This document shows positions 45,481 through 62,369 of a DNA stretch of 64,000 bases, piece by piece. The notes under the pieces are model-generated. The model was not told the origin of the DNA. It worked only from the letters and a program-made list of their open reading frames with translations, and did not search any database. The DNA is taken from positions 3,808,001-3,872,000 of the forward strand of contig OZ252100.1 in assembly GCA_965248435.1 (NCBI GenBank), read 5' to 3'. Made by a program: the position numbers and the translations under genes. Position 1 is the stretch's first letter. Every line of letters starts with the position of its first letter. Source of the DNA: Candidatus Latescibacterota bacterium (GTDB lineage: Bacteria; Latescibacterota; UBA2968; GCA-2709665).

Positions 45481-45561
45481 AGTTAACAAGGCACTTGCGG
45501 CTCGGGCCGTGCGGCCCTCGGCAAACCCCTACGGGGTTCGCAAGTGCCTAGACCGTTACAC
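45481..45561 (+). repeat. attC-like site 1
   Basis: AGTTAAC..ggcacttgcg / cgcaagtgcc..GTTACAC. Confidence 0.85.
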
Positions 45562-45587
45562 GCCAGGCACACAAGGATGGCTCAAAG

Positions 45588-46160
45588 GTGCTGATGCCCG
45601 AAGCCCTATCCATAATCGTGCAGCGGGTCTTTCACTCCAAGCCTCGATCAACACTGTTGACGGAGAGCACTGCACTCCAAGCTAGCGAGTTGGCCGACAC
45701 TTGCCTGGGCCTGCGCGCGCAGATGCTCCACTGTCTGGAGGGGCTTCCCGCGCTGGCCTTCGAACCGGCGCCTGACCGCCTGCCTGGGGAGACTGGCTGG
45801 ACGGCGGGTGAGATCGTCAGCCACAACACCGACCGCCTGTTGTGGGCGCTGACCGAGGCAACCGCGACCGCCGGACTGAGCGAAAGCATTGTTCCGAGGC
45901 CGCCCGAAGTGGTCGCGAGCAACGCAGCGCACGAGCCTATACTTCTAGACCGCTGCCTTGCCCTGGAGGTCGTGCAGGCGGCAAACGGCCATCTCAAGAG
46001 TGTGCTTCCTCTCCTGTTGTCAACCGACCGGGGGGAGACGACAACGAGGACTCACCACGGACCCATGAGCGTCAAATCGTGGCTACTCCTGATTTGTATC
46101 CACGACAGCGACCATTTGGGGCAGTTGCGCGCACGCCAGGAGCCAGGCACGTTGGCTTGA
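45588..46160 (+). CDS. DinB-like protein (cassette 2)
   Basis: WTAGEIVSH and HDSDHLGQL His motifs. Confidence 0.7.
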   Translation: MLMPEALSIIVQRVFHSKPRSTLLTESTALQASELADTCLGLRAQMLHCLEGLPALAFEPAPDRLPGETGWTAGEIVSHNTDRLLWALTEATATAGLSESIVPRPPEVVASNAAHEPILLDRCLALEVVQAANGHLKSVLPLLLSTDRGETTTRTHHGPMSVKSWLLLICIHDSDHLGQLRARQEPGTLA

Positions 46161-46203
46161 TGAGGAGGCGATGCTTTTTACATGTGGTGTGGATGTGCCC
46201 GGC

Positions 46204-46345
46204 GTGTAACACGACGGGCTGCGGCTCGTGGCATTCGCCCCTCGCCCAACCTGCCTCATCGCGGTCACGGCACTTGCTCAAGAAAATCGTGGGTGGCAAG
46301 CGCCGCGCCCGCTTGGCAGGTTCGCAGCCCGCGAGAACGTTACAC
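46204..46345 (+). repeat. attC-like site 2
   Basis: GTGTAAC..gggctgcg / cgcagccc..gagaacGTTACAC. Confidence 0.85.
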
Positions 46346-46408
46346 GCCAGCAGGTTCTTCCTGAAACAACCGATAGGATGATGTTCCTGATGGAGTTCCC
46401 TTGGAGCA

Positions 46409-47299
46409 ATGATGAAAGACTCTTTTTCCGTATCTGACATCCCGCCCGAAGAAATCCAAGAGGTAATCGAGGTCACCAACGACTATCTAGTTGCGTTGGC
46501 GGCTGCGTCGAGGGATCAAGATGGGCATGTAAACGTGAACTGGACTGCTAGCGGCATGCTGGCTACCATAGGCGGTGAGCCCACTATCATCACTGCCCGA
46601 CATGTCGCTGAGGCTCTGGAAAGAGAAGAACCGGAGAGTGTTAAGATCTGGACTGACTTCAGAAAGGAAAGTGCAACGGCAGTAATGTCTTTAGACATTA
46701 CGCATGTACGCTTTGTGAAGTCTGCAAAACCGGCGTCAGGGAAGGCCATTGATGGCCCTGACCTGGCATTGATATTACTTCCGGACCACTTGGTTGGATC
46801 AATATCGGCCACCAAGGGCTTCTACAATCTGGACAAACGGCGCGACGCCGCGCTCCAGCAGGAGGGACCGCCCACGACAGGCTTCTGGCTTGCTCGTGGC
46901 TTTCCGTACGAACTCGTGACCGGGATGGATGGCGCCGAGGGTTTCTGCTTCTACTGCCTCAACCACGTGTGCTACCTCAGCGGATCCCACGAAGAGGCTG
47001 GCCATGATTACTACGACCTGGAGTTCGATTTCACATTGATGGACACCCTATCAGCCTCCGGCGAGCATCCAGAGTTGAAGACCAACCAGGGAATGAGCGG
47101 TGGTCCTATATGGCACGTTAAGGTTCACGGCGACTCGGAGGGCGTACCACGAATAAAGGACCCGCAGGGAGATATCCTTCTCTCCGGAGTGATCTTCTAC
47201 GAGTACGACCTAGAGAAGGAAAGCAAGAAGTTTCGCTGTCACGGAATCCGGTCGGTCTATAAAGCGCTCTACGATCTCCTCAAACAGCAGACTGACTAA
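46409..47299 (+). CDS. Trypsin-like serine protease (cassette 3)
   Basis: ITARHV, PDLAL, GMSGGP catalytic triad motifs. Confidence 0.7.
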   Translation: MMKDSFSVSDIPPEEIQEVIEVTNDYLVALAAASRDQDGHVNVNWTASGMLATIGGEPTIITARHVAEALEREEPESVKIWTDFRKESATAVMSLDITHVRFVKSAKPASGKAIDGPDLALILLPDHLVGSISATKGFYNLDKRRDAALQQEGPPTTGFWLARGFPYELVTGMDGAEGFCFYCLNHVCYLSGSHEEAGHDYYDLEFDFTLMDTLSASGEHPELKTNQGMSGGPIWHVKVHGDSEGVPRIKDPQGDILLSGVIFYEYDLEKESKKFRCHGIRSVYKALYDLLKQQTD

Positions 47300-47316
47300 C
47301 CCTTTGGTGCGCCGGC

Positions 47317-47455
47317 GTGTAACACGAGCACCCACGGCTCCGGCGCATACGCGCCTCCGCTGAAACCTGCCTCCCGCCTTACCAGTCTGCTCTGATAGAT
47401 GCCTGACGGCCTTCGTGAAGAGTCGGCAGGTTCGTGGGTGCCGAGAACGTTAAGT
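47317..47455 (+). repeat. attC-like site 3
   Basis: GTGTAAC..gcacccacg / cgtgggtgc..GTTAAGT. Confidence 0.85.
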
Positions 47456-47484
47456 GAAACCCGACGAAGGGGTTTACGCAAATC

Positions 47485-48132
47485 ATGCAATCTAAGCGGG
47501 CTGTGGTCCTCCAGCGCATCGCTGCAGAAATCTGGGGGAACCTTACTGACAATGTGATAAAAGTCGCGATCGATGGTGTAGATGGCGCCGGCAAGACGAC
47601 ATTTGCAGACGAGCTCGCTGAAATCATCGAAAACCGACCTATAATCCGTGCATCAGTAGATTTCTTTCACAATCCCCGAGCAATCAGATACCGACAGGGA
47701 AAAGATTCGCCGTTAGGTTTTTTCGAAGACTCGTACAACTACGAGGAACTTCTCGGCTTACTTCTCAATCCTCTAAGTCCTGGAGGGTCTGGGCGCTTTC
47801 GCACTAAGGCATTCGACCACAGGACCGACGCCCACGTTGAGTCACCCGAACTGTACGCGGAGCCAGAGTCGATTCTCTTGTTCGACGGGATTTTCTTGCA
47901 TAGACCTGAACTTTGGGACATATGGGATTATTCAATCTACTTGGACGTGAATTTCGAGAACTCAATTCCGAGATGTGCTCTCCGTGGAGAGGGAAATCCG
48001 GATCCCTATGCCGAGCAGAACCGCCGCTACATAGAGGGGCAGAAAATTTACATCCAAAACTGCCAACCCAGTGAACGGGCAACAATAATCGTCGACAACA
48101 ATGATTTGGATGCTCCCTTTATCGTTTCTTAA
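47485..48132 (+). CDS. Uridine kinase-like P-loop protein (cassette 4)
   Basis: IDGVDGAGKTT, DFFH, FDGIFL. Confidence 0.85.
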   Translation: MQSKRAVVLQRIAAEIWGNLTDNVIKVAIDGVDGAGKTTFADELAEIIENRPIIRASVDFFHNPRAIRYRQGKDSPLGFFEDSYNYEELLGLLLNPLSPGGSGRFRTKAFDHRTDAHVESPELYAEPESILLFDGIFLHRPELWDIWDYSIYLDVNFENSIPRCALRGEGNPDPYAEQNRRYIEGQKIYIQNCQPSERATIIVDNNDLDAPFIVS

Positions 48133-48166
48133 TGCTGGTACGGCGGGCGTATCCGCGTCGGACTTC

Positions 48167-48294
48167 ACTTAACACGTCCACTTGCGCTGCGGCGCATTCG
48201 CGCCTTGGCCTGACGGCAACCCGCCTTCCTCCTTCGCTGCTTCGCAGCTTCGGAGGGCAAGTCGGCGGGTTCGCAAGTGGCGGGAACGTTATAT
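48167..48294 (+). repeat. attC-like site 4
   Basis: ACTTAAC..ccacttgcg / cgcaagtgg..GTTATAT. Confidence 0.85.
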
Positions 48295-48321
48295 GCAATG
48301 CAGCCAGGAGAGGGTTTTCGA

Positions 48322-49044
48322 ATGGAGAGTCGATTGGATTCGGACCATCCAGATCCCATCCTTGCAGAGCAGGTAGAGTACTACCGTGCTCGGGCTCCAG
48401 AGTACGATGACTGGTACCTCCGCAGGGGGCGATACGATCACGGGCAAGAGCTGAATGACCGATTCAGGGCAGAAATCAACACCGTTGAAACCGAGGTGAG
48501 GGCTCTTGCGAATGTGGACAGGATTTTGGAACTGGCTGCTGGTACCGGCTGGTGGACGAGGCTCTTTCGGGAGACAGGTGCCAGAGTGACGGCCGTGGAT
48601 TCTTCGCCGGAGGTCCTAGCAAAGAACCGGGGTAGGAATGGAGACGAGAAGATCGAGTACGTAGAGGCCGATGTACTCAGTTGGACGCCGCGCGGAAGGT
48701 ATGATCTGGTCTTCTTCGGCTGCTGGCTCTCTCATGTCCCCCCCGACCAGTTTGAGACCTTCTGGAATAGAGTTGGAGAATCTGTGAAACCGGGAGGCAA
48801 AGTGGCTTTCGTGGACACACTGCGAGAAGGAATCAAGACCGTGGCGGCGCGAGACCATCACCGGAGAGAGAATGAAGGCGACATCACCGAACGCTACCTA
48901 AACGACGGAACGCCGTTCAAGATTTACAAAGTCTTCTACCAACCAGAGGAGTTGACAGAACGGCTACAACGACTGGGATGGGAAGTCAAGGTCAAGACCA
49001 GCGGAGAGTACTTCCTTTTCGGATCGGGTGAAAGGGAAAACTAA
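48322..49044 (+). CDS. Class I SAM-dependent methyltransferase (cassette 5)
   Basis: YYRARAPEYD, LELAAGTG, WLSHVP. Confidence 0.88.
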   Translation: MESRLDSDHPDPILAEQVEYYRARAPEYDDWYLRRGRYDHGQELNDRFRAEINTVETEVRALANVDRILELAAGTGWWTRLFRETGARVTAVDSSPEVLAKNRGRNGDEKIEYVEADVLSWTPRGRYDLVFFGCWLSHVPPDQFETFWNRVGESVKPGGKVAFVDTLREGIKTVAARDHHRRENEGDITERYLNDGTPFKIYKVFYQPEELTERLQRLGWEVKVKTSGEYFLFGSGEREN

Positions 49045-49088
49045 CCCCCACAGAAATGTGTTTTCTCTCGGCAACCTGGCTGCACTGC

Positions 49089-49175
49089 ATATAACACGAC
49101 GGGCTGCGGCTCCGGCCATTTGGCCTCCGCACCAACCTGCCTGCGGCAGGTTCGCAGCCCGCGAGAACGTTATAG
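49089..49175 (+). repeat. attC-like site 5
   Basis: ATATAAC..gggctgcg / cgcagccc..GTTATAG. Confidence 0.85.
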
Positions 49176-49252
49176 GAAATGCCAGCAGCTCAACTTACTG
49201 GGTGGTTGTTAAGAATGTTCGGAACTATTGAATCGAAAGAGGTGCGCTGAAC

Positions 49253-49906
49253 ATGAAAGTGCCCTACGCAGACTCCGGTGTATGGGACCGAAGGTTCGAG
49301 CAAGAAGGTGATTTAGACTGGGGAGGGCTTTGGACCGATCCGTTCATAGAACTTTTTCGGGAGAACGGTTGCCATTCGATTCTGGATCTGGGGTGTGGGA
49401 CTGGAAACGATGTACTCCGCCTGGCAGAGGAAGGGTTTCAAGTCACTGGACTGGATTTCTCTGAGCACGCTCTTAATCTAGCGGAGCCTAAGAGGATTCA
49501 GGATGCGACATTCATTCGGGCGGACATGGTCGATGGGCTGCCGTTTGTTGATAAGCGCTTCGATGCTGCAATGGCGAACGTAGCGCTTCACATGTTCGAC
49601 CGTGGCACCACAGACACTGTCATTCAAGAAGTAAGAAGGATCCTCCGTCCGGAGGGAGTGTTCATCTTTCACGTCAACTCTATTGATGATCGAAGGCTGC
49701 GTGAGAAGCGTAGGAAACCCGAGGAGGAACTGGATAAGAATCTTATCAGAGAAGAAGATGGACAGACCGTTCACTTTTTCACCCAGACCGAACTCAAGTT
49801 ACTCTTTGCTGGATGGTCCCAGTTACAACTTGACCACTTGGAGATTCCGCATAGGGAAACGGGTGAACCATTCAAGAGGATGTGGAGAGGAGTGGCCAAG
49901 AATTGA
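49253..49906 (+). CDS. Class I SAM-dependent methyltransferase (cassette 6)
   Basis: ILDLGCGTG, GLDFS, RILRPEG. Confidence 0.88.
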   Translation: MKVPYADSGVWDRRFEQEGDLDWGGLWTDPFIELFRENGCHSILDLGCGTGNDVLRLAEEGFQVTGLDFSEHALNLAEPKRIQDATFIRADMVDGLPFVDKRFDAAMANVALHMFDRGTTDTVIQEVRRILRPEGVFIFHVNSIDDRRLREKRRKPEEELDKNLIREEDGQTVHFFTQTELKLLFAGWSQLQLDHLEIPHRETGEPFKRMWRGVAKN

Positions 49907-49943
49907 GGATCTAACCAATTAGAAACATGACTGCTGGCACTTC

Positions 49944-50037
49944 CTATAACACGACCACTTGCGCTGCGTCGCTTTCGCTCCTTGGCCTTTACGGCAACCC
50001 GCCTTTGGCGGGTTCGCAAATGGCGAGAACGTTATGC
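49944..50037 (+). repeat. attC-like site 6
   Basis: CTATAAC..ccacttgcg / cgcaaatgg..GTTATGC. Confidence 0.85.
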
Positions 50038-50143
50038 GCCAATGCTGTTTCTGTGGTGGAAACTGCAGACTAGGGAGCAGACCCCCAGGGCAATTGTTTG
50101 TACACCCAGATTGCCTATGATGGTGTAACGAGCAAGAAAGTTC

Positions 50144-50680
50144 ATGACAAAGATCAAGAACCTTCGAGATGTGGGACTCGGCATCAACGAAATCCTAGTG
50201 GAAAGCATGCTTAGACAGTGCGCTCTCTATCGCAGCGGCGCCCTACCTGATTCTCTGCAAAAGGGTGATCTGCCCTGGGTTGAGACCGTTATTAGCCTGA
50301 GACGGGAGGCCGATCCCGAACTCGAAAACATCAAACAGCTGCAAGTTGCACCCAATGGCTCGATGAACAACTACGTTTTCACGGCTCAGGTCTTCGAAGA
50401 GTGGATTCAGAGACTGTATAGGACACTAGCGGAGTTTACTGTCTGGCCTGTTCTCCTGCATTGTACAGGAGGCAAAGATAGAACTGGAGTTGGCGTCGCC
50501 CTTGTTTTGAGAAACCTTGGCATCTCTGAGGACGCCATTGTGGAGGAGTATATGCGGGGTGAAGGCACTCGCTACCCAGAAAGCATGGAGAACCTCCTAA
50601 AAGAACTCCCTCGGCTGTCACATCTAAGAATGGATGAACAACAAAAGGAAACGATCGGAAGTGAATTGCTGGCGGACTAG
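50144..50680 (+). CDS. Tyrosine-protein phosphatase (Y_phosphatase3-like; cassette 7)
   Basis: NLRDVG, LYRSG, HCTGGKDRTG P-loop. Confidence 0.85.
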   Translation: MTKIKNLRDVGLGINEILVESMLRQCALYRSGALPDSLQKGDLPWVETVISLRREADPELENIKQLQVAPNGSMNNYVFTAQVFEEWIQRLYRTLAEFTVWPVLLHCTGGKDRTGVGVALVLRNLGISEDAIVEEYMRGEGTRYPESMENLLKELPRLSHLRMDEQQKETIGSELLAD

Positions 50681-50766
50681 ACGTCGGGTTCGGATAGAGG
50701 CAAGACCGAGAAAGTCAGGCAAACGACTGCTCTTGTATTTCTGTCGAGACACAGAAACAGCACAGC

Positions 50767-50911
50767 GCATAACAACGGCACCCCCGGCTTCGGCGCTTAC
50801 GCGCCTGCGCGCAACCTGCCTGGCGCTGTCACGGCGCTTGCAATAAATCAAGACCCTGAGGGGCAAGCGCCGCGCCAGCTTGGCAGGTTCGTGGGTGCTT
50901 GACCGTTAAAC
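50767..50911 (+). repeat. attC-like site 7
   Basis: GCATAAC..gcacccccg / cgtgggtgc..GTTAAAC. Confidence 0.85.
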
Positions 50912-50933
50912 GACATAAGAAAAATCAATCACT

Positions 50934-51923
50934 ATGGTAGACAGTTGGAACAAGGATTCTAATACGGAAGTGCTCAACAAAATCGATCAATTCATATTTG
51001 AATACCCTGAATACACTCGCGAAGGAGTTGATCTGCGTCCCCCAATGGGTACGAACCGGGTTGTATTCGCACGCCGAGGGCAAGATAAGGTTGTGTTCAA
51101 AGTATTCTGTGAAGAAGAACGCAAGGAGCGCGAGTGTTTCGCCCTACGCCACTGGCATAAGACGGGTCTGGTGCCCCATATTATCTGGGATGATGACCCC
51201 ACTATGGTCATTCTGTCCTGGATACCCGGATTGACGATGGGCGAAGCGCGGGAGCAGGGTGCAACAGACGCTGAATTTTGCACCGTCTATCAACAAATTG
51301 GCGAAGCGTTTGCGACGCTGAATACAGTCCCTCTAAGTCCCGCCGATCAAGCAGCTTTTGAGAATCGCTTCTATAGTGACTTAGGCCCCCTTGATTCGTA
51401 TTTGGAGCGCATTCTAGAGTTAGCCAAGGGCGTGCATGTCCGAGATCCAGATTTCCAAGATGTTTTTTGGGGGGAAAGTCTCGATTTTATCGAAGAGCAA
51501 CTAAACAAGATTCTAAACCAACCCCGTCTTCTCTATCATCAAGATGCCGGAAATCTGCACATCAAAGGAGAACGCTTGATTGGTTTTTTCGATTTGGAGA
51601 TGTGTCGGGTCGGTGGTTTCGCCATGCAATTGGCAGCCGCGCCTGGAGTATTTTACGAAGACGGAAGTAATCCAGAAGAGCTACGAAAAGTGCTCTGGCG
51701 CGCATTTCGCCGAGGTTGGGAAGATGCGATAGGCAATCCCTTAAGTTTCGATGATCTCGAAGCGATTACAGCCGCCAACCACTTGCTAAACTGGCGTGAG
51801 ATTACTCGCTATTTGAGCTACGATGGTACTCCTGGAACAGGCTTTTCTTGGGCTAACCCGGCTGATCCCGTAAGGTATCGAAACCGACTTGAACCACTGG
51901 CACGCGTACTCCAAACACAATAA
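50934..51923 (+). CDS. APH-like phosphotransferase/kinase fold protein (cassette 8)
   Basis: VFKVF, LYHQDAGNLHI, FFDLE. Confidence 0.7.
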   Translation: MVDSWNKDSNTEVLNKIDQFIFEYPEYTREGVDLRPPMGTNRVVFARRGQDKVVFKVFCEEERKERECFALRHWHKTGLVPHIIWDDDPTMVILSWIPGLTMGEAREQGATDAEFCTVYQQIGEAFATLNTVPLSPADQAAFENRFYSDLGPLDSYLERILELAKGVHVRDPDFQDVFWGESLDFIEEQLNKILNQPRLLYHQDAGNLHIKGERLIGFFDLEMCRVGGFAMQLAAAPGVFYEDGSNPEELRKVLWRAFRRGWEDAIGNPLSFDDLEAITAANHLLNWREITRYLSYDGTPGTGFSWANPADPVRYRNRLEPLARVLQTQ

Positions 51924-51944
51924 ATGATGAAACTATCTTACGTC

Positions 51945-52046
51945 GTTTAACAGGCCACACACGCTGCGGTCGCTACGCTCCCTTGGCCTACGGCACAGCG
52001 GCTCCGTTTCACTGCGCCGCCGTCGTGTATGGCCGGACCGTTAGCC
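51945..52046 (+). repeat. attC-like site 8 (divergent type)
   Basis: GTTTAAC a ggccacacacg / cgtgtatggcc ggaccGTTAGCC. Confidence 0.8.
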
Positions 52047-52102
52047 GCAAGCGGCAGAGAAACACCAGATTGGGCACAAGGGATCTTAGGACTAGAGAAA
52101 AG

Positions 52103-52498
52103 ATGGAAGACCGGGCTTGCATCGCATTCATCGAAGACGGGCAGATTCTGATGGTTCAACAGCTCGACGGGGGGAGGATGGTCTGGACTTTTCCGGGCGG
52201 AGGGATTCGGAATGGAGAGAGTCCCCGTGAGGCAGCCGTTCGCGAGGCCAGGGAGGAAGTCAACGTATATGCAAAAGTAGGCCGAATCCTATATCGAGGC
52301 CCCAGGAGTACCACCAAAGGAGAGTATTACTGCTTTGAGGGACGAATCGTCAGAGGAGAAGTGAGTCTGGGGAAGGATCCTGAATTGCCGGATGATGCAC
52401 AGGAATTGCAGGATGTCCGGTGGTTTCCAATTACAGAGGTCAGGGATCACTTTGAAGTTTCGAGAATCTTGGGATCTATAGTCCGGAATGAAGGGTGA
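52103..52498 (+). CDS. NUDIX hydrolase (cassette 9)
   Basis: PGGG...GES.REAAVREAREE Nudix box. Confidence 0.9.
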   Translation: MEDRACIAFIEDGQILMVQQLDGGRMVWTFPGGGIRNGESPREAAVREAREEVNVYAKVGRILYRGPRSTTKGEYYCFEGRIVRGEVSLGKDPELPDDAQELQDVRWFPITEVRDHFEVSRILGSIVRNEG

Positions 52499-52551
52499 TG
52501 GCGTGCCCTTTACGCATCTGCGTGATGGCTTCGCCTGATTCGACCGCCAGC

Positions 52552-52693
52552 GGCTAACACGGCACCCCCGGCTCAGCGCCTGTCGGCGCTTCGGCCCAAC
52601 CTTCCTTCGCGGTCACGGCGTTTGCTTCAAAGACAAAAGCTGGGCAACCGCCGCGCCCACTCGGCAGGTTCGTGGGTGCCGAGAACGTTAGAT
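52552..52693 (+). repeat. attC-like site 9, R' box interrupted by IS110
   Basis: GGCTAAC..cggcacc / ggtgccg..gagaacGTTAG|IS. Confidence 0.85.
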
Positions 52694-52706
52694 ACTCTCT
52701 TGGTGG

Positions 52707-53699
52707 TCAAGCCATTTTGTAGAACTTTTCTCCGTCGAAGTCCTGGTTGTGTTGGAGAATACCCCAGATGCAGTGAAGCAGCTTTCGCATCACCGCGATG
52801 ACCCCCTGCATCGGCTTCTTGCCTCGACTGATGAGTTTTTCGTAGAACGCCTTCACATTGGGCTGCTGTTGAATGGCCACCAGCGCTGGCATATATAAGG
52901 CGGTTCGTAAATACTTATTCCCCGCTTTGGAGATCACTCGGCGCTTGTGAATCGTGTCTCCCGATTCGTGGGGTCGTGGATCCAGGCCTGCGTAGGCCAC
53001 CCATTGGGCAGGCTTCATATCGGCAGGCAACATCGCAATCTCTGCCAGAATGCCCATCGCGCTGGTTGCTGCGATCCCGTGAACGGAAGTCAATCGTGCG
53101 AACTTCTCGCGCAGAGTGGCTTCCCCCTCAATGAGCTCCAGAGCCCGCGCTTTCAGCTGCTGCACACGCGCTTTGAGATGTTCAACATGCTCTTCGATGT
53201 CCAAGGAGACGGCAGAGGTGACCGATGGCCGCTGCGTGGAAGCATGAAGCCGGTTTCCTTCCCGGTTGATCTCGACTTTGATCTGCGCGATCCGGCGTGT
53301 AATCGCCTGCAGGTCAAGCACTTCATCACGGGGTGCCTGCCACGTCTGGAAGGGCATCCGCTGCACATACTCCAATGCCACTTCCGCATCGATCGGGTCG
53401 GTTTTCCCCCGTTTCATCAAAGCCTGGGAGAAATTCCTCAGCGCTCTGGGGTTGATTACCATCACCTGAGTCTTCGGATGCCGATGCAACGCCAACGCCA
53501 CCTCAAAACTATAGATGCCTGTGGCCTCGACTCCCACTCGAGCCGGCTTTCCCCGCTTTGTCGCCCACTTGATCAATCGACGGTGCCCTTCGCCTGTGTT
53601 GGGAAATCTTGCCAGTGGATACGCTTTCCCTGAGCGACGGATCGCGACCACCAGCTCCCGGGCTGAGACGTCTACCCCCAACAGATTCTCTTGCTTCAT
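52707..53699 (-). CDS. IS110-family recombinase (DEDD RuvC-like + Tnp20 domain)
   Basis: GVDVS, VEATG, KTDPID, YAGLDP..HESG, SKAGN; start MKQENLL after an AAGGAGG RBS. Confidence 0.93.
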   Translation of the reverse strand: MKQENLLGVDVSARELVVAIRRSGKAYPLARFPNTGEGHRRLIKWATKRGKPARVGVEATGIYSFEVALALHRHPKTQVMVINPRALRNFSQALMKRGKTDPIDAEVALEYVQRMPFQTWQAPRDEVLDLQAITRRIAQIKVEINREGNRLHASTQRPSVTSAVSLDIEEHVEHLKARVQQLKARALELIEGEATLREKFARLTSVHGIAATSAMGILAEIAMLPADMKPAQWVAYAGLDPRPHESGDTIHKRRVISKAGNKYLRTALYMPALVAIQQQPNVKAFYEKLISRGKKPMQGVIAVMRKLLHCIWGILQHNQDFDGEKFYKMA

Positions 53700-53719
53700 G
53701 ATCTCTCCCTCCTTATTTG

Positions 53720-53872
53720 TACCTCTGGTCCCCCGACCTTGCACCTGGCCTACCAGCCTTGTGATACAGACTCTCGGGTCTCGGATACTCCTCGGCATGG
53801 GCCAAGAAGGCGGGGGGCCTATCTAACGTCCAAGGTCAATGCCTTCATGCGCAATCCGGCCTCCCCAGAGGT
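53720..53872 (-). ncRNA. Predicted IS110 bridge RNA
   Basis: Closing stem ACCUCUGG/CCAGAGGU; target loop AUUGCGCAU + GACGUUAG; donor loop GGAGUAUC + ACAAG. Confidence 0.75.
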
Positions 53873-53956
53873 CTTCTTCGAACCAAGATAATCTACAAAT
53901 AGATCATATTTTCAAGATACAAGATGCAATCGTGGCCCTGTTACGAAGAGGGTTGA

Positions 53957-54790
53957 ATGCTTAGAATCGGGATTTCTGCCAGTACAATTCTTTCGGATTC
54001 AGATAGACTGGATGAAGTATTCTGGGAAGGGATAGACCACATAGAAATAGGGGCACTTTCCTCGCATCGTGATCTGACTTATCTACTCAGAAAGGCACAA
54101 GACAAACGGATAAGTGTCGGCTTCCATTCGCCCGTTTTCGCGGGAGGCAGCAAATACGACCTCTTGGTACCGGTAGACGGGGAGATCGAGAGTGCGTGGA
54201 GCCAAATCGAACAGGAAATGGCCTTGGCGCAGGATAACGGAGTAGAATATGTGCTGATGCATTTCCCGTACTTCGAAACCTCCTCTACACCAAACTCTAT
54301 TTCAAGAATGGAATGGGGTCTGGAACGCCTTCGCTCGTTGCAGGAGAGATACGCAACGAGATTAGTGTGCGAACCCAAACTCGGTGACAACCGAAATGCC
54401 GGTGCAATCGAGATTCTCCGGCGCTATTCAGTGGAGAAATGGGCAAGCTGGGGTATCGCTATGTGCTGGGATATGGGCGATTATCTGTTGGCGACGGGCT
54501 CTTCGGACGAATCCGTGCTGGAGCTGCGGAGGCTGAGTAGCATAATCGAGGTAGTCCACGTGCATAACGTACAGGTGGAATCCGGAAAGTATTTCTGGGT
54601 GCCCATACACCCCTCGCACGAGGAAGACGATGGGTTTTTTCGCATTGCACCAATCTTGTCGGAGATGAAAAACATGGATGCTGTGCTCGTTTGGGAGCAC
54701 ACTCCCCATTTCACCCCGAGTGAGGAGTTTGCAGTTGAGGGATTCAAATGGGCAGTAAACTTGCTTGGATTTGGCTCACGCTCTAGTTGA
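53957..54790 (+). CDS. AP endonuclease 2 / xylose isomerase-like TIM barrel (cassette 10)
   Basis: FHSP, LMHFP, CEPK, WDMG, VHVHN, VWEH. Confidence 0.7.
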   Translation: MLRIGISASTILSDSDRLDEVFWEGIDHIEIGALSSHRDLTYLLRKAQDKRISVGFHSPVFAGGSKYDLLVPVDGEIESAWSQIEQEMALAQDNGVEYVLMHFPYFETSSTPNSISRMEWGLERLRSLQERYATRLVCEPKLGDNRNAGAIEILRRYSVEKWASWGIAMCWDMGDYLLATGSSDESVLELRRLSSIIEVVHVHNVQVESGKYFWVPIHPSHEEDDGFFRIAPILSEMKNMDAVLVWEHTPHFTPSEEFAVEGFKWAVNLLGFGSRSS

Positions 54791-54807
54791 AGCGGGGCCA
54801 CGACAGC

Positions 54808-54896
54808 ATCTAACACGACGGGCTGCGGCTCCGGCGCATTCGCGCCTCCGACCCAACCTGCCTGCGGCAGGTTCGCAGCCCGCGAGAACGTTATGC
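54808..54896 (+). repeat. attC-like site 10
   Basis: ATCTAAC..gggctgcg / cgcagccc..GTTATGC. Confidence 0.85.
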
Positions 54897-54942
54897 GGCA
54901 TCGGCACTTCAAAATCTTTCTGGTTAACCATCTGGACCTTTG

Positions 54943-55491
54943 ATGATGATCTCTATATTCCGGGTAATTCTATTCGCCTCTATTTTCATCCATCTTCTGG
55001 GCGCTAGGACCAATGCACTTTGGGACGAGGCGCCTCTCCTCGATAGGATCCTAAGAGCAGAAATGGTCGTTGTGGGCAAGCTAGTCAACGTCGAAAACAA
55101 CGCGATCCTTATCAGACGTCCTGGACCGAGGGGAGAGAAGGGATTTCAAGTGCATCTTGACATAGGGTCTATTCAAGCCACAAATGTGCTCTACGAAAGG
55201 GGGCCACCCGGCGCTTCCCCGAAAGCTCGGAAACTTCCGGCCAACTTTCCATTTGCCTGCCATAGCCGAAGCCAGCCTCAATCTGGCGGACTCAGGGCTT
55301 GGAGTTTTTCTTATTTGAATTTCGAAGAAGGTGATGAGGGGGTTTGGATTCTTAACCAGTCTCATTTTGTCGGGTACCTAGCAGTCACGTATCCCCACAA
55401 CTTCCTTCCCATCGATTCGCTGATAGTTGTAGAGAAGACGATAGACAAATCAGTCAAAGCGACCAACGTTGACAGTTTGCCGGGAAACTAG
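54943..55491 (+). CDS. Hypothetical, probably exported protein (cassette 11)
   Basis: Fills the cassette; hydrophobic N-terminus. Confidence 0.6.
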   Translation: MMISIFRVILFASIFIHLLGARTNALWDEAPLLDRILRAEMVVVGKLVNVENNAILIRRPGPRGEKGFQVHLDIGSIQATNVLYERGPPGASPKARKLPANFPFACHSRSQPQSGGLRAWSFSYLNFEEGDEGVWILNQSHFVGYLAVTYPHNFLPIDSLIVVEKTIDKSVKATNVDSLPGN

Positions 55492-55538
55492 CTTTGAGAA
55501 CATCATACTTAGAAACGGACACTAACCGCACCAACGCC

Positions 55539-55651
55539 GCATAACACGGCACCCTCGGCTCAGGCCATCCGGCCTTCGCCCAACCCGCCTTCGCGGCTTA
55601 CGCCGCTTCGGTGGACAGGCGGCAGGTTCGTGGGTGCCGAGAACGTTATGC
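55539..55651 (+). repeat. attC-like site 11
   Basis: GCATAAC..cggcaccc / gggtgccg..GTTATGC. Confidence 0.85.
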
Positions 55652-55714
55652 GGCAAGTCGGTCTTGGTACAATGGTATGAGGCCATAGGGAGAAAGCACA
55701 AACCGGAGAGACCT

Positions 55715-56605
55715 ATGCATTCGATTGACCTGAAGGGAAAAGTTGGTTTGGTCACCGGCGTTGGCAACAAGTGGAGCCTGGGTTGGGCAATTGCCCAAAT
55801 TCTCCACTCCGCAGGAATGCTCCTTGTTTTTGGGTATTCCAGACAGAGAAGTCGAAAAGCAATCGAGAAGCTCCTGACCGAATCGGGATGGGATAATGTG
55901 GTACTTCCAGATGTGATCTACGATGCCGAGGACGATACTCAGATTGAAAGACTCTTCAACTTTGTGGAGGATGAGGTTGGTGCTTTACATGCGTTCCTTC
56001 ACTCGATAGCCTTTGCACCTCCAGAGGCACTGCAAGGCGAGTTCGGTGATACATCCCGTGAGGCTTTTCGGACCGCTCTGAATGTCAGTACGTTTTCTTT
56101 CTTGAAGATGAGTCGATGTGCCTCAGAATTGATGGTTGATGGCGGTTCCATTCTCACTCTGAGTTTCTTGGCTTCACAGAGAGTGTTTCCTCACTACAAC
56201 GTAATGGGAACTGCGAAAGCCGCGCTCGAACACTCTGTCAGACAGCTAGCTTTCGAGTTAGGACCCAGAAACATCAGGGTGAACACCATTTCGGCTGGAC
56301 CAATAAGCACGGCGTCTGCCCGAGGCGTAAAGGGATTTGGAGGATTTCATCACTCCTACGCTGAGAATGCACCCCTGCGAAGAAATGTAAGTCAGGAGGA
56401 AGTCGGTAAGGCTGCTCTCTTCCTTCTTAGTGATCTGTCGAGTGGAGTCACCGGGGAAGTGCTTCATGTGGATGGAGGATACAATGTCCTGGGAGCGCCC
56501 CTTGGAGAATTTCCAAAGGCAGATCAACGGCAAAAAAGGGGAGAAGCATGCTCCGGCTCTCCCCCAAACTCCTTCGATGAGAACCAAAGCCGACTCACCG
56601 CATAA
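55715..56605 (+). CDS. fabI: Enoyl-ACP reductase (cassette 12)
   Basis: GVGNKWSLGW, HSIAFAP, YNVMGTAKAALE, ISAGPI, VLHVDGG; stop codon lies in the attC R'' box. Confidence 0.88.
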   Translation: MHSIDLKGKVGLVTGVGNKWSLGWAIAQILHSAGMLLVFGYSRQRSRKAIEKLLTESGWDNVVLPDVIYDAEDDTQIERLFNFVEDEVGALHAFLHSIAFAPPEALQGEFGDTSREAFRTALNVSTFSFLKMSRCASELMVDGGSILTLSFLASQRVFPHYNVMGTAKAALEHSVRQLAFELGPRNIRVNTISAGPISTASARGVKGFGGFHHSYAENAPLRRNVSQEEVGKAALFLLSDLSSGVTGEVLHVDGGYNVLGAPLGEFPKADQRQKRGEACSGSPPNSFDENQSRLTA

Positions 56606-56685
56606 CAAGCCGTCTGCGGCTCGGGGCAGTCGCCCCTCGCTCAACTTGCCTTCGGCAAACTCGCAGAACGGCCAGAACGTTAACT
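56600..56685 (+). repeat. attC-like site 12
   Basis: GCATAAC..gccgtctgcg / cgcagaacggc..GTTAACT. Confidence 0.8.
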
Positions 56686-56710
56686 GCAATGGCGGTGGGG
56701 GGAAGCAGGA

Positions 56711-57586
56711 GTGATGAAATTGAAAGCGAACGTCATGAACGAAGCGAGTCGCTGGCGACTTGCCCTAGCAAAAAGGGTTTCGGAGATCTATTGCGAACAT
56801 GCCGATGTAAAGGCGGTAGCAGTGGGTGGGTCAGTTGCACGTGGGATTGCTGATGCCTATTCAGACATCGACATGCCAGCGTTCTGTAAGGAATTGCCTT
56901 CTGAGGATTCCTTAGAAGCTTTGTCGGGAAGAATCAAAGGAGCGGTCTGGAGACCTTTTCGCAAATCAGATATGGCTATAGCTTCAGAACTCTATATCGA
57001 CAGTGTTCGAGTAGATATGCCGTTCATTAAGATTGATAGAATGCTAGATGTTCTAGATCAAGTTGTGGAACAGCACAGTACTGATCCCTCCAAACAGAAG
57101 TCAGTTGGAGGAATTCTTGACGCAATTCCGATTCATGGCTTTGATCTAATCGACAAATGGAAGGCCAAGGCTGCCGAATATCCCAATGAACTCGCGAAAT
57201 CAATGGTGAAGAAACATTTACAGTTCGAGCCTCTATGGGTACCAAGGGAATACGCTGTTTTGCGAGAGAGCAAACTTTTTGAGTGTGAGCTAATATGTGC
57301 TTATGCCAAAAATATTCTCGGTGTACTCTTGGGGCTCAATCGAATCTATCACCCAGGTGACCTTAAGAGATTGGATTGGCTTGTAGGGAGAATGTCAATT
57401 GTTCCACGTGACCTGCTGTCTCGTCTGAGAGAAGCTTTCCAGGCTAATCGGAAGGATGTTATAAACGATCTCAGTAAACTAATCGAGGAAATAATCGACT
57501 TAGTAAATACGAAGGAAGTTAGGAAATCACTTAATAGTTCGCCGTATGTTTGTACCATTCCACCCACGGTTGAGATTTCCGATTAG
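56711..57586 (+). CDS. Pol-beta-like nucleotidyltransferase with helical C-terminal domain (cassette 13)
   Basis: VGGSVARG.AD.YSDID motif. Confidence 0.78.
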   Translation: MMKLKANVMNEASRWRLALAKRVSEIYCEHADVKAVAVGGSVARGIADAYSDIDMPAFCKELPSEDSLEALSGRIKGAVWRPFRKSDMAIASELYIDSVRVDMPFIKIDRMLDVLDQVVEQHSTDPSKQKSVGGILDAIPIHGFDLIDKWKAKAAEYPNELAKSMVKKHLQFEPLWVPREYAVLRESKLFECELICAYAKNILGVLLGLNRIYHPGDLKRLDWLVGRMSIVPRDLLSRLREAFQANRKDVINDLSKLIEEIIDLVNTKEVRKSLNSSPYVCTIPPTVEISD

Positions 57587-57634
57587 AAAAGCGCAGGCCA
57601 CCGTTTTGTAATGGAGAGTCAGCACCGCCACAGC

Positions 57635-57779
57635 AGTTAACACGGCACTCCCGGCTCAGCGCCTGGTTGCGCTTCGCCCAACCTTCCTTCGCGGTCACGG
57701 CGCTTGCTTTAAAGATAAAATGCGGTTTGCAACCGCCGCGCCCGCTTGGCAGGTTCGCAGCCCGCGAGAACGGTTAAAT
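57635..57779 (+). repeat. attC-like site 13 (mismatched arms)
   Basis: AGTTAAC..cggcactcccg / cgcagccc..GTTAAAT. Confidence 0.8.
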
Positions 57780-57886
57780 GACATGGGATGAAATGAGACT
57801 ACATTCTTGCGGTATATCCTCAGAATAGAAGGAGATATGCTGCAAATTTCGTGATTCACTAATGAACGGGCAACAAGACAAGGAAT

Positions 57887-58786
57887 ATGATGAAAGAACT
57901 TGCTGCAAGAGCCTTGGAAGATATCGAGCACTCAGTACCTCATGGGATATGGGGTGCTCACAACGGCTGTGCGATCCTCGCGGGCATATTTCTGATCGAA
58001 GAGAACTTGATCGAGGAAGGTGCGAAGGAAGCGGTGAAGCAATTGCTCAATTCGAGTAGAGTTAAGAGGGACCAGCAAGGAAACGAAAGGCGCCTCATCA
58101 GCTTGGGTGATTTCAGAGAAAGATTGATATCTTGCCTAGCGCTGGACCCGGAGCAAGTAAAAGAAATCGGCCACGATGTAATCTTCTCTTCGTACGTACT
58201 CAAGGCTTTGGATTTCCTTTCGATCTCACCCTGGGAGTCGTTGCTGGAGAGCATGGTAGAGTTGATCGGCGCGATTAAGGAATCCACGCCAGGTTGGATC
58301 ACCGTGAATGGAGAAAATCAACCGAGAGAACTGGACAAAGTTGACTCAAGTCTGCCGACAAACTACTGGCATGCCTTCGCGGCCTTAGATAGGCCCATCC
58401 AAATGGAAATAGGAGATATGCAGTTAGGACATGTTCTTACTCACGGGCATGCGATCGAGATGTTCAAATTGTACGGAAACAAGAAATCAGCGGTTGCATT
58501 TGATATAGCCTATCGCAAGCGATTGCACGGACTGCTATTGGCAAACAGTGAACAGAAAGAAAGAACAGCGCTTCCTCGTAGAAGGTTAGATCCACGCCTC
58601 GCGAGCTATTGGAGGCACGTGAAAACCAACGGCGACATGGAAGGCCATGTTTACAAGTACGCCTTCAGCTTCCTGGATCTGAATAGGCATGATCTGCGGA
58701 CCGAGGCATTCGAGGCATTCGGAAGGGTTGTTTGGCCCAACAAGCCGCTGGAGACAACGGCGACAAACGATGCGTCTAAGCCCTGA
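57887..58786 (+). CDS. Hypothetical His-rich helical protein (cassette 14)
   Basis: GAHNG, IGHDVIF, GHVLTHGH, GHVYKY; fills the cassette. Confidence 0.6.
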   Translation: MMKELAARALEDIEHSVPHGIWGAHNGCAILAGIFLIEENLIEEGAKEAVKQLLNSSRVKRDQQGNERRLISLGDFRERLISCLALDPEQVKEIGHDVIFSSYVLKALDFLSISPWESLLESMVELIGAIKESTPGWITVNGENQPRELDKVDSSLPTNYWHAFAALDRPIQMEIGDMQLGHVLTHGHAIEMFKLYGNKKSAVAFDIAYRKRLHGLLLANSEQKERTALPRRRLDPRLASYWRHVKTNGDMEGHVYKYAFSFLDLNRHDLRTEAFEAFGRVVWPNKPLETTATNDASKP

Positions 58787-58794
58787 TGTTAGTA
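58735..58794 (+). repeat. Vestigial classical 59-be-type attC nested inside cassette 14
   Basis: GCCCAAC-aagcc-gctggagac..gtctaagc-cctgat-GTTAGTA, 60 bp. Confidence 0.6.
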
Positions 58795-58841
58795 AGAACT
58801 TGGCTCAACTATCAGTTTGACCAGAGATAGTATCCCACGTC

Positions 58842-58933
58842 ATTTAACACGCCCACTTGCGCTGCGGCGCATTCGCGCCTTGGCTTTTGGCAACCCGCCT
58901 GCAGCGGGTTCGCAAGTGGCGAGAAGGTAGGAC
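58842..58933 (+). repeat. attC-like site 14 with degenerate R' (GTAGGAC)
   Basis: ATTTAAC..ccacttgcg / cgcaagtgg..gagaagGTAGGAC. Confidence 0.75.
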
Positions 58934-58959
58934 GCCAAGTCTGTACAGGCGGGTAGCCT

Positions 58960-60267
58960 ATGGATGAAGAGATCTTGAATGAGTCAATCGTATTCCTTGG
59001 TCTATGTGAGAAAGTCCAAACGGTTCCCGATGGCCATCCGGACTTTCTGAAACAGAACATACTAGGACTCAAGACTACTGTCTTCTCTCCCTTCTTTCCT
59101 ATGGGAATGAAAGGGTTTAGTCTTGCCTTCTGTATGAAGTGGCGGGATGTGCCATTTTCTGCCAAGATTAGAGGCTTGCATCCCGACGGGAAGGAAGCGT
59201 TTCGTATCGAATTCAACGCTGAATTTGAGCCACATGAGTCCGGACAGCGAAAGAAACCAGGTGAGGCCAGCCAATCAAGGTTTAGTGTAATTGCATCAGA
59301 CGATCCGCCATCTTGGGCATTTGTGACTTTCCCTGTGCCTGAAAAATCAGTGGTGGCAACGCCGGGTTTTATGAAAATCTGTGCCGCAGTTGCCGAGGAG
59401 GAGTCAGTCATTGGCCAGGTAAGATTTGTGCATGCGAAGCCTGCCCCACTCACTCCAGATAGAATCGACGCGATCAAGAGCAACCCACAAGCAGCGAAAA
59501 CAGTCTGGTACACAATCGGGTGCACGGAGTGTTCGGACGCTATCAAAGCCTACGCTGGGATCGGTCGCAACATGGATTCGGAAGAAGATGGCTGGATTTG
59601 GCAACATGACCTACCTAAGACGTTCAAATGCAAATGTGCGAAAACGAGGTTGGATCTATCCTATATGCGCGATGGTCTTCACGGCCTCTTGGGTTCCATC
59701 TATAGCATAGGCGAGGACGTAGAGTTCACCCGTCTCTACGAAAGAAGCGCTCTTGAGTCAATTTCAGGCAAGTATTGGAAGATACTGCGAGATTCGGAAA
59801 GGGAAGAAGATCTGCAGAAGTTCATCGAGGGAGCTCCAGCACTTTTGCAGTGTTTTAGTCCTGCACGGATCTTTCACAAGAGCCCCATCCTGAGTAAATA
59901 CAGTGTTGATTTCGCCATTCTCGACACTCAGGGGCACCTAATCCTTATTGAGATAGAAAGACCAGGAATCCGCTTGCTTCGTAAGGATGGCGGAATGGCG
60001 GCCGAACTCGGACATGCTTTCACTCAAGTAAGTCAATGGTTACTGGAATTTGACTTGCATCGACAGGCTTGCCTGGAATGTATTGGGGTCGACCCAAAAG
60101 AGGTTGTCCAAGTTAGAGGTGTAGTTATCGCAGGACGAGAAGCCGAGTATCCGGCAGAACATTTGGCCAGGCTAAAATGGGAAGACCGAGGTAAGATAAG
60201 CTTCCTTACATACGACGATCTTGGCCGGAGCTATATCAGTCTTATTCGAAGGTTCCATGACCTGTAG
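58960..60267 (+). CDS. Shedu (SduA/DUF4263)-like nuclease with uncharacterised N-terminal domain (cassette 15)
   Basis: EEDLQKFI, VDFAI, LIEIERP, AFTQVSQW, VVIAGR, LTYDDL. Confidence 0.72.
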   Translation: MDEEILNESIVFLGLCEKVQTVPDGHPDFLKQNILGLKTTVFSPFFPMGMKGFSLAFCMKWRDVPFSAKIRGLHPDGKEAFRIEFNAEFEPHESGQRKKPGEASQSRFSVIASDDPPSWAFVTFPVPEKSVVATPGFMKICAAVAEEESVIGQVRFVHAKPAPLTPDRIDAIKSNPQAAKTVWYTIGCTECSDAIKAYAGIGRNMDSEEDGWIWQHDLPKTFKCKCAKTRLDLSYMRDGLHGLLGSIYSIGEDVEFTRLYERSALESISGKYWKILRDSEREEDLQKFIEGAPALLQCFSPARIFHKSPILSKYSVDFAILDTQGHLILIEIERPGIRLLRKDGGMAAELGHAFTQVSQWLLEFDLHRQACLECIGVDPKEVVQVRGVVIAGREAEYPAEHLARLKWEDRGKISFLTYDDLGRSYISLIRRFHDL

Positions 60268-60283
60268 ATCGTGCAGACTCGGC

Positions 60284-60427
60284 ATCTAACACGCCGGGCT
60301 GCGGCTCCGGCGCATTCGCGCCTCCGGCCCAACCTGCCTTTCGCGTTCACGGCGCTTGCTTGGCGACGAACAAAAGGGGCAAGCGCCGCGCCCACGGGCA
60401 GGTTCGTGGGTGCCGAGAACGTTAAAT
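60284..60427 (+). repeat. attC-like site 15 (mismatched arms)
   Basis: ATCTAAC..gggctgcg / cgtgggtgccg..GTTAAAT. Confidence 0.8.
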
Positions 60428-60507
60428 GCAATTGCGGCTCACAGACAAGCCGGCGACGCGTCCTGCGCCGCAAACAAAACTAGAGCTACGGAAGTAGGAG
60501 TACACTC

Positions 60508-61422
60508 ATGGCTGAACAAACCGAAACTGAATCACCCGAATGCAGTAATGTCGCCCCTCTCGTGGGATTCTGGGGCTGTGATGCGGAAACGGACGAGATA
60601 CCTGTTGGGTTTGATGTCGCACTCGTCAGGAATCCGAGGGTGGATGTTGATGAGGAATGGTCAAAGAAGATTGGGACGTCGGCTACCGATGAGCTGCGAA
60701 GAGCTCAGTGGGCACTTGAACACAGGTATCGTGGTGAGCCGGGAATCCATTTGGGATCAAAGGAGGATCTTTCGGATCAGTTGTTGCAGACTGCGTTGCT
60801 TGCTCTTTGGATCACTAAGCCCACCGGAGCCAGGATCACGCACCTGCTGAGATACCGTACCCCCTGGCACTCTGCGAATGCAGCATCTGTCGCGTTCTAC
60901 CGAGGGGATTCCTTTAGACCTAATCGTCGATATGAAAGGACTACTTTCGCCCCCGACGATCTGGATGACCTCGGGACAGTGTTCAAGGGCGTGAAATCAA
61001 TATTCGACATGAAGAAGGGACTCAGGCGAGCACTCTACCATCTGAGCGGGGCCTTACACTTGTGGTTCTGGGATGCTCGATTCGCGATGTTCACAGTCGT
61101 TCTCGAAAGCCTGTTCACCACAGACGCACAAGAGATCACGCACAAGATCAGCGAACGCATCGCCTTCTTCCTTAAGGACACTCCAGCAGAGAGGCGATGT
61201 GTGTTTGATGACGTAAAGGAAATCTACCGTACAAGATCGAGAATTGTCCACGGACTCGATCTCAAGGCTACTGAAGAACAAACCGTCAGCCTCTTGGCGG
61301 AACTAGAGGCGCTTGTTCACCACGTTTTGAAGAGGATTTTGAAAGATTCAAAGCTGGTAGAGGAGTTCTCTGGCAATGCCAAGCGACGTGAACAGTTCCT
61401 AACTGACCTTGTGTTCTCCTAA
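60508..61422 (+). CDS. HEPN-domain protein (ApeA-like; cassette 16)
   Basis: LESLF..EITHKISERIA..YRTRSRIVHG (RxxxxH). Confidence 0.75.
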   Translation: MAEQTETESPECSNVAPLVGFWGCDAETDEIPVGFDVALVRNPRVDVDEEWSKKIGTSATDELRRAQWALEHRYRGEPGIHLGSKEDLSDQLLQTALLALWITKPTGARITHLLRYRTPWHSANAASVAFYRGDSFRPNRRYERTTFAPDDLDDLGTVFKGVKSIFDMKKGLRRALYHLSGALHLWFWDARFAMFTVVLESLFTTDAQEITHKISERIAFFLKDTPAERRCVFDDVKEIYRTRSRIVHGLDLKATEEQTVSLLAELEALVHHVLKRILKDSKLVEEFSGNAKRREQFLTDLVFS

Positions 61423-61479
61423 GTCTTTATGGAGCTTGGCCAACTTGCCTTCGTAGCAAGCTGGCCGGGCCGCAACAGC

Positions 61480-62340: not shown

Positions 62341-62369
62341 CACATTAGTCAGGACAGAAAGGCAACAGA

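Follow-up and report, generated by a model that had tools for sequence, protein, structure and literature searches.

An IS110-type element in a cassette array

The 64,000-nucleotide (nt) stretch of the Candidatus Latescibacterota bacterium genome analysed here (the window; contig OZ252100.1, positions 3,808,001 to 3,872,000) contains a 1230-bp IS110-type insertion sequence (IS) at 53921-52692 on the minus strand, lodged in an attC-like site of a cassette array. Read on its own strand, the element starts with TGTATCTTG, ends with AGAGTAT and is flanked by CT on both sides. A 222-nt non-coding left end (53700-53921), whose terminal motif also occurs in 10 related lineages, precedes a gene for a 330-amino-acid recombinase (52707-53699), which is followed by a right end of 15 nt (52692-52706). 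The core dinucleotide of the right junction (52690-52691) is CT in all three full copies found in this genome, and that of the left junction (53922-53923), which we read as the target's own core, is CT in the window copy. Beyond it lies the left target flank ATTGCAT (53924-53930; ATGCAAT on the plus strand), which is the start of the downstream cassette and matches positions 3-9 of the cassette-start consensus.

The recombinase matches PF01548 and PF02371 (E 5.5e-23 and 9.4e-20, both over the curated cut-offs) and aligns end to end with those of IS621 (8wt6, E 3.8e-38) and ISCro4 (9t56, E 1.8e-41). Its residues D10, E58, D101, D104 and S246 fall on D11, E60, D102, D105 and S241, the catalytic residues of IS621 as named by Hiraizumi et al. 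(PMC11208158). The correspondence was counted from the printed alignment with a chain numbering offset of 2, and all five residues are invariant across 14 aligned relatives.

The interrupted site occupies 52552-52691 on the plus strand and consists of an R'' box GGCTAAC (52552-52558), L boxes CGGCACC and GGTGCCG, and an R' box GTTAG (52687-52691). The R' box is cut after its fifth base (GTT-AG^), such that the plus strand reads GAGAACGTTAG (52681-52691), then the element, then ATGCAAT at 53924-53930. On the minus strand, the junctions are ATTGCAT-CT-TGTAT on the left and AGAGTAT-CT-AACGTT on the right.

Sites of the attC type are imperfect palindromes of the form RYYYAAC ... GTTRRRY, 57-141 nt long, with paired L boxes and a single open reading frame (ORF) between neighbouring sites. 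The window holds 17 such repeats between 45.5 and 63.8 kb (array 45534-63849, plus strand), spaced 652-2656 bp apart and parted by single ORFs, one on the plus strand before each. A profile of the 3' ends of these sites finds 72 attC-like R' ends genome-wide, in about nine clusters. At 34 of 66 sites, the L boxes form an inverted repeat that is perfect over at least 7 bp and closed by ..TAAC / GTTA.., compared with 2.2% of shuffles, and the inferred site lengths are 77-159 nt. The 17 sites of the window and the 72 of the genome fit the description of attC arrays. A first attC scan, run with overly strict settings, had found no sites. Upstream of the array, three tandem copies of a ~2.65-kb unit, 67-92% identical, occupy 32562-40505.

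No match to the integron integrase model TIGR02249 exceeds its cut-off in this genome, which is 97.5% complete, and the arrays are therefore taken to be attC clusters without an integrase. The best sub-threshold matches lack profile positions 176-237 and correspond to six copies of a tyrosine recombinase encoded beside an IS91-type transposase. In the window, this IS91-type element lies at 42020-44068 on the plus strand and encodes a 283-amino-acid tyrosine recombinase (PF00589/PF13495) followed by a 394-amino-acid Y2_Tnp/Zn_Tnp_IS91 transposase. Its six copies are near-identical, the others being at G000:C1 near 1448.7, 2072.0, 4651.5, 4843.4 and 5171.6 kb, and four of the six lie within 3-10 kb of a copy or fragment of the IS110 element, adjoining attC clusters.

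Five stretches of the genome match the IS110 element. Three are full copies, at 100, 99 and 98% identity; the other two are a left end of 256 nt, 94% identical, and a scrap of 26 nt. The 256-nt fragment (L004:1501-1756; G000:C1:4835981-4836236) ends just inside the gene. Its left target guide, defined below, ends in UU rather than AU, and its right donor guide has two changes; it marks an array edge next to unrelated DNA. The three full copies and this fragment occupy the same position in attC-like R' boxes, in the same orientation, and the transposase gene is antiparallel to the cassette genes in all copies. The right junction is GAGTAT-CT-AACGTTC in all three full copies. The left junctions are ATTGCAT-CT in the window copy, ATGGCTC-AT and ACTGCGC-AT in the two other full copies (L002 and L003, respectively), and CTTTCGC-CC in the fragment. 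Because these flanks differ beyond the junction letters and a local BLAST search of the genome finds no paralogue of any left flank, and so no empty-site copy, we regard the insertions as independent.

After insertion, window positions 52687-52693 on the plus strand read GTTAG+AT, the last two letters being contributed by the element end. Since GTTAGAT fits the R' consensus GTTRRRY, an integrase may still be able to use the upstream attC, the element and the following cassette then forming a single unit.

The predicted left-end RNA and its guides

The left end would encode a bridge RNA (53717-53874, minus strand), as judged from the consensus fold of relatives and from a covariance model. A scaffold common to the left ends of relatives consists of an outer stem and two internal loops. 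The first, for target binding, is closed by GGCC/GGCC and carries a small capping hairpin; the second is for donor binding. The RNAalifold consensus of 13 sequences (alignment A2) contains 32 base pairs, 17 of which show compensatory changes. A covariance model (R1) built on the alignment of relatives matches 72 of 81 other loci, always on the strand of the gene, and the RNA lies directly upstream of the gene wherever the gene start is in view. Among the families of Rfam 15, a search of 52400-54200 at E up to 10 gives no bridge-RNA family and only two chance matches.

The register of the guides was set by the alignment of relatives: the nine letters before the capping hairpin form the left target guide, and the eight after it form the right target guide, which is followed by two handshake letters. 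The left target guide is thus AUUGCGC-AU, seven target and two core letters (ATTGCGCAT, 53847-53855, minus strand, as are all guides), and the right target guide is GACGUU-AG (GACGTTAG, 53830-53823), with the handshake pair AU at 53822-53821. In the second loop, read in the same layout for the donor, the left donor guide is GGAGUAU-CC (53783-53791; GGAGTATC at 53791-53784), in agreement with the right end AGAGTAT-CT. The right donor guide is GUAUCACA-AG (53767-53758), with the handshake pair GC at 53757-53756. The last letters of this guide, ACAAG (53762-53758), pair with CT-TGT of the left end, and the GC pair is complementary to the GC at positions 6-7 of the target specified by the left target guide.

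The reverse complement of the right target guide, CT-AACGTC, differs from the flank CT-AACGTT only in its last pair, which is G-T. Agreement on the left side is looser. Taken as nine letters, the left guide matches the left flank of the window copy at 6 of 9 positions and those of the other two full copies at 7 and 8 of 9. On the attC strand it spells AT-GCGCAAT, which equals the consensus of 62 empty cassette starts in this genome at 8 of 9 positions. After GTT, these empty sites carry A at +1 in 56 cases, G at +5 in all 62 and A at +8 in 57. On this basis the left guide is, we infer, a consensus or "generalist" guide that would tolerate about two mismatches.

Comparison among relatives indicates that the loop strands are not only complementary to target and donor but covary with them. 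For 23 copies from 10 lineages, guides match their own flanks at 8.87 of 12 non-core positions, compared with 4.41 for 207 foreign pairs, and the highest-scoring foreign pairs fall among three attC-targeting lineages. In metagenome loci, right flanks match at 4.43 of 6 positions versus 2.26 (61 of the 70 parsed loci have a right flank), and left flanks at 4.63 of 7 versus 2.05 (27 loci). One relative, G097, has the right end ..AGAAAAC-CT in place of ..AGAGTAT-CT, and its left donor guide is correspondingly GGAAAAC-CC, while the target-loop handshake is GU instead of AU. This three-way change of donor end, left donor guide and handshake is what the handshake model of Hiraizumi et al. (PMC11208158) predicts.

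A reading of the window made earlier from its sequence alone (the sequence-only reading) had described an IS110 bridge recombinase programmed against the cassette crossover site. The insertion point and flanks that it gave are present letter for letter, as are its four guide segments at 53830-53823, 53855-53847, 53791-53784 and 53762-53758, and the bridge RNA layout that it proposed agrees with a non-coding end that folds in two internal loops matching target and donor. It had also called for inspection of other copies, with insertion at unrelated sequences as grounds for abandoning the idea; the other copies share the attC position and the orientation. Its long right guide on the conserved attC arm does cover the core plus AACGT(T), and its tolerant left guide on the variable cassette start fits the 8-of-9 agreement with the consensus. 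For that left guide, position and role were retained, and the register was revised to the 7+2 arrangement. The IS621 donor, which it had put one base away from the one here, is printed as ACAGTAT.CT.TGTAT (10.64898/2026.08.31.748434) against AGAGTAT-CT-TGTAT in this element, a difference of one base.

We conclude that the element is very probably an IS621-type member of the IS110 family whose left-end bridge RNA targets attC R' boxes. Its anatomy, the fixed position and orientation of three full copies, one fragment and two diverged relatives, and the covariation of guides with flanks are direct observations, and the mechanism is assigned by analogy with IS621.

Several results weigh against this interpretation. 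Of the 7 non-core positions, the guide agrees with the left flanks of the three insertions at only 5, 5 and 6, and IS621 tolerates mismatches poorly (Durrant et al., PMC11208160). Among the 62 empty sites, 27 match the left guide at 5 or more of 7 positions, at least as well as the weakest of the used sites, and one of them, with core AC, matches at all 7 and also carries AACGTT. (A genome-wide guide score that gives wobbles half weight, and so inflates ties, was used only to name this best empty site.) With many equally good sites empty, site occupancy is not accounted for by the guides alone. Moreover, no single core could pair with both the left guide (AU) and the right guide (AG). The single-sequence fold of the RNA is no more stable than those of shuffles (z -0.6), and the evidence for structure therefore comes from the comparison of relatives. 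The sample in this genome amounts to three full insertions and one fragment; no empty-site allele was seen for any of the three, and among contigs of other runs mapped to the window none bridges the empty site of the window insertion. Inverted-repeat tests on the flanks of metagenome relatives, given below, point the same way.

Some of these same facts would be expected if the shape of the attC hairpin in its folded state, or contacts between protein and DNA, mainly determined the target, with the RNA matches secondary or partly coincidental; structure would then act as an added second layer or on its own. All used sites are hairpin-forming and attC-like and are entered in a single orientation, left-flank matches reach just 5-6 of 7 while many equal or better sites stay empty, and a "sequence-structure dual-match" has been reported for the IS110 element ISPpu10 (10.64898/2026.03.19.712850). 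However, relatives with the same scaffold insert in non-palindromic DNA (for example, heptad repeats in genomes G091 and G084), and their guides match those flanks; structure alone also leaves unexplained the matching of guides to flanks over 61 metagenome loci. We consider hairpin or protein recognition as the main determinant unlikely.

With guide-directed targeting as the preferred reading, the sequence of events can be modelled on IS621, from which production of the RNA and its binding by the recombinase are likewise extrapolated. Of the two internal loops in the bridge RNA that the left end would encode, the one for the donor (GGAGUAU-CC and ..ACA-AG) would recognize the joined element ends AGAGTAT-CT-TGTAT, and the one for the target would recognize the bottom strand of attC at the R' box. 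There, the right guide GACGUU-AG would pair with CT-AACGT(T), the conserved R' and spacer, and the left guide AUUGCGC-AU with bases 1-9 of the following cassette. The recombinase, with Ser246 and its DEDD residues, would then cut the top strands 3' of the two-base core and join element to target. Every insertion would consequently follow GTT-NN and have the same orientation, at a distance of 4-5 bases from the integron crossover point. Use would extend to targets that differ from the donor in the first core base (AT versus CT), and top-strand insertion or replication would leave the target core on the left and the donor core on the right.

Two candidate promoters might supply the RNA. TTGACC at 52710-52705 resembles a -35 box, and TTGACC, 17 nt and TATCTT span the predicted circle junction, so that TTGACC would act as a -35 box after joining of the element ends. 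A second promoter-like sequence, TTGAAA-16-GATTAT, lies inside the left end upstream of the bridge RNA region (53915-53888, minus strand) and could drive RNA synthesis from an integrated copy, in addition to the circle-junction promoter.

Contigs from runs of another organism (X5 and X6) carry the element with 20 differences, one of which, at 53853, alters the left target guide to AUGGCGCAU; the left flank is different as well. This change is possibly a natural re-aiming. In one contig of run X6, a joint 52691>56602 leads from GTTAG, the R' box of the interrupted site, to ATAACAAGCC.., with which another attC-like site begins; the shorter side of the joint is 24 letters long.

Unequal cores in the guides and at the junctions

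CT is the core of the donor, and the right guides for target and donor both pair with it. In contrast, the left target guide carries the core letters AU and the left donor guide CC. The sequence-only reading had named a CT core for target and donor. The donor and the right guide do use CT, but the core of the left guide is AU, and the left junctions of the other copies read AT, AT and CC. A uniform core over donor, target and four guides is thus not found here, which is no ground for excluding the element from the IS110 family. In IS621, pairing of both guides with the core is strongly preferred (Durrant et al., PMC11208160).

The left-junction cores, CT, AT, AT and CC, are non-CT in three of four cases, and AT is the commonest core among the empty sites (22 of 62). 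Because two copies and the fragment have AT, AT and CC at this junction, GTTAT sites, and not GTTAG sites alone, appear to serve as targets. When the left-junction dinucleotide is taken as the target core, a position matrix of the 62 empty sites gives the reconstructed targets of L002 and L003 scores of +10.3 and +7.1, respectively; when the targets are read as GTTAG+AT.., the scores fall to -6.9 and -4.7. We infer that L002 and L003 entered GTT-AT-.. sites, with the left junction keeping the core of the target and the right junction that of the donor, a pattern drawn from two full copies and one fragment.

The AT at these left junctions might alternatively not be a target core at all, if the two copies had entered GTTAGAT targets and lost CT, or if the element boundary lay elsewhere, so that core and junctions would be symmetric as in IS621. 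Targets read as ..CAT-CT-AACGTT would indeed give all three sites CATCTAACGTT in common, and the right guide plus its handshake pair would form a 10-nt match to ATCTAACGT(T). Yet none of the 62 empty sites reads GTTAGAT, and such targets break the invariant spacing that places G at +5 in 62 of 62 and give the negative matrix scores. The same 2-bp loss would be required twice, at independent sites, and the fragment carries CC where the other two have AT. The AU that follows the right guide stands, furthermore, at the place of the IS621 handshake letters A81/U82 (PMC11208158) and becomes GU where the donor end is altered. A loss of CT or a displaced boundary is accordingly improbable.

Under the preferred assignment, in which the left junction preserves the target core, a target core on the left and a donor core on the right are expected if the top strand, cut 3' of the core, is alone inherited. 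IS621 cleaves both top strands 3' of its CT core (Hiraizumi et al., PMC11208158), top-strand insertion has been reported for CazIS110 (10.1101/2025.10.25.684509), and two recent preprints propose single-strand inheritance, for CazIS110 and for IS621. The junction pattern here fits the model of top-strand-only insertion with a cut 3' of the core, followed by replication, that is associated with CazIS110-1 (Sun et al. 2025; Xie et al. 2026). The results there were obtained at the bench on matched cores, whereas those here are natural junctions of two full copies and one fragment.

These points lead to a tentative proposal, which in its entirety we hold to be possible but somewhat short of probable. 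The target loop would have a split core, its left guide set for AT, the commonest attC core of the host, and its right guide, like the donor, for CT, so that a whole family of attC sites, variable in the first core base, would be open to one element. Resolution of the mismatch would favour the top strand, and the junctions would stand as a fossil record of top-strand-only transfer in vivo. Targeting of attC would have arisen in the IS621 branch independently of the attC-specific IS1111 elements and recurred in at least three diverged lineages of the phylum.

A relative on a metagenome contig (L101) has an AT core in its donor, its target flanks and its target guides, with AC in the left donor guide. 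To judge from its sequence, the core can be re-set as a whole within the clade.

Relatives and known systems

A search of genome contigs with a single protein gave one weak partial match, and the relatives were supplied by a phylum-wide genome search. Among 167 other genomes of the phylum, 15 contain relatives with 51-60% protein identity (16 of 168 with the genome studied here). Two of these relatives, in G101 and G097 (59 and 57% identity), are inserted at CT-AACGT(C/T) in the same orientation, with more attC-like ends within 10 kb on the opposite strand. The nearest public proteins are 63-71% identical, come from metagenomes labelled Arenicellales, Planctomycetota and others, and are all annotated just as "IS110 family transposase".

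Among 70 metagenome RNAs, the right guide is set for CTAAC.. in 24 and for ATAAC.. in one. For metagenome relatives with the right flank (core)-AAC, a gapped test detects a significant inverted repeat in 5 of 18 long-enough flanks, compared with 5 of 35 controls, and a strict L-box test is positive in 2 of 18. A crude inverted-repeat score and a test of end-paired minimum free energy failed to separate attC-like flanks from others, and both were dropped. Wide attC targeting in the clade is thus not supported by the flank test, and at these frequencies attC targeting is not claimed for the metagenome "CTAAC" group. In a tree of 79 proteins built by a quick method, at least 8-11 changes are required for the CT-AAC label, against a mean of 23.3 for shuffled labels (0 of 500 shuffles as low); as far as this tree indicates, the label is clustered yet repeatedly gained or lost.

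In G091 (L019, L029, L035, L038 and L041) and G084 (L020, L031, L037 and L040), relatives have reached at least 13 copies per genome in tandem heptanucleotide repeats. The repeat units include CTCGCCT and CTCCCGT, and the left guides spell the unit.

The element shares with IS621 its two protein domains and five catalytic residues and a left-end bridge RNA with target and donor loops (PMC11208160, PMC11208158). In both elements, the left guide is 9 nt long (7+2), the core forms part of the right guide, and each right guide is followed by a handshake pair, which reads AU in the target loop. The donors are closely similar, as given above, and in both the circle junction brings together a -35 box from the right end and a -10 box from the left. 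The two proteins are nonetheless distant, and a distant blastn search of the element against 5,426 E. coli genomes gives no DNA match. IS621 targets a REP element, whereas the target here is the attC R' box; the right guide is 8 nt long rather than 4; and the AU core of the left guide, where the donor and both right guides use CT, together with the non-CT left junctions, departs from the IS621 pattern.

Elements of the IS1111-attC group (ISKpn4, ISPst6 and ISPa25), for which Tetu and Holmes (2008) and Post and Hall (2009) are reportedly the sources, also encode DEDD transposases and occupy a fixed place, in a fixed orientation, at one end of attC. They are known from integrons of Proteobacteria, whereas the element described here resides in integrase-less chromosomal arrays of another phylum. 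In that group as well, a short RNA from the element's own non-coding region, the seekRNA, matches both strands of the target (Siddiquee et al., PMC11187229). The present element might accordingly be a member of this known group, given that its target is of the same kind and that the broad family, in the sense of ISfinder, is shared (PMC11187229). Its architecture argues strongly for the IS110 type, as the sequence-only reading had also held. The long non-coding region lies upstream of the gene (222 nt, against 15 nt downstream), whereas the IS1111-attC guide RNA is encoded downstream; the two target matches follow the IS110 order, bottom strand (left guide) 5' and top strand 3', the opposite of that in the IS1111-attC group; and 330 amino acids fall within the 315-330 range of the IS492/IS621/Piv branch (comparisons from PMC11187229). 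The end-to-end alignment with IS621, including the five catalytic residues, agrees with this placement. IS1111-attC elements also possess subterminal inverted repeats (PMC11187229). The sole subterminal repeat here is an 8-bp pair, TTTGTAGA / TCTACAAA (53899-53892 and 52722-52715), which joins the left end to the last codons of the gene. With partial extension it scores 12, a value reached by 2 of 500 shuffles, but it falls in conserved codons and is absent from the left ends of relatives; it is probably due to chance. We therefore regard membership in the IS1111-attC group as very improbable, and retain the assignment to the IS621 branch.

The mechanism is of a known kind, and attC is a new target for the IS621 branch. 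In the full-text literature we found no published description of an IS110-type, left-end-encoded bridge RNA aimed at attC; this covers neither subscription journals nor the closed supplementary target tables of Durrant et al., which may list attC-like targets.

Bridge recombinases are under development as programmable tools for DNA insertion, and recent preprints leave open how far mismatches between core and guide are tolerated and whether one strand or two are transferred. This element is a natural case that bears on both questions: its left guide equals the consensus of a degenerate family of sites, the core letters differ between its guides, and its junctions differ in the way that top-strand transfer predicts. 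For integron biology, it would represent a second, independent lineage of RNA-guided insertion sequences that homes to attC, here in large chromosomal arrays without an integrase, where its insertions put a mobile element bearing candidate promoters at the boundaries of cassettes.

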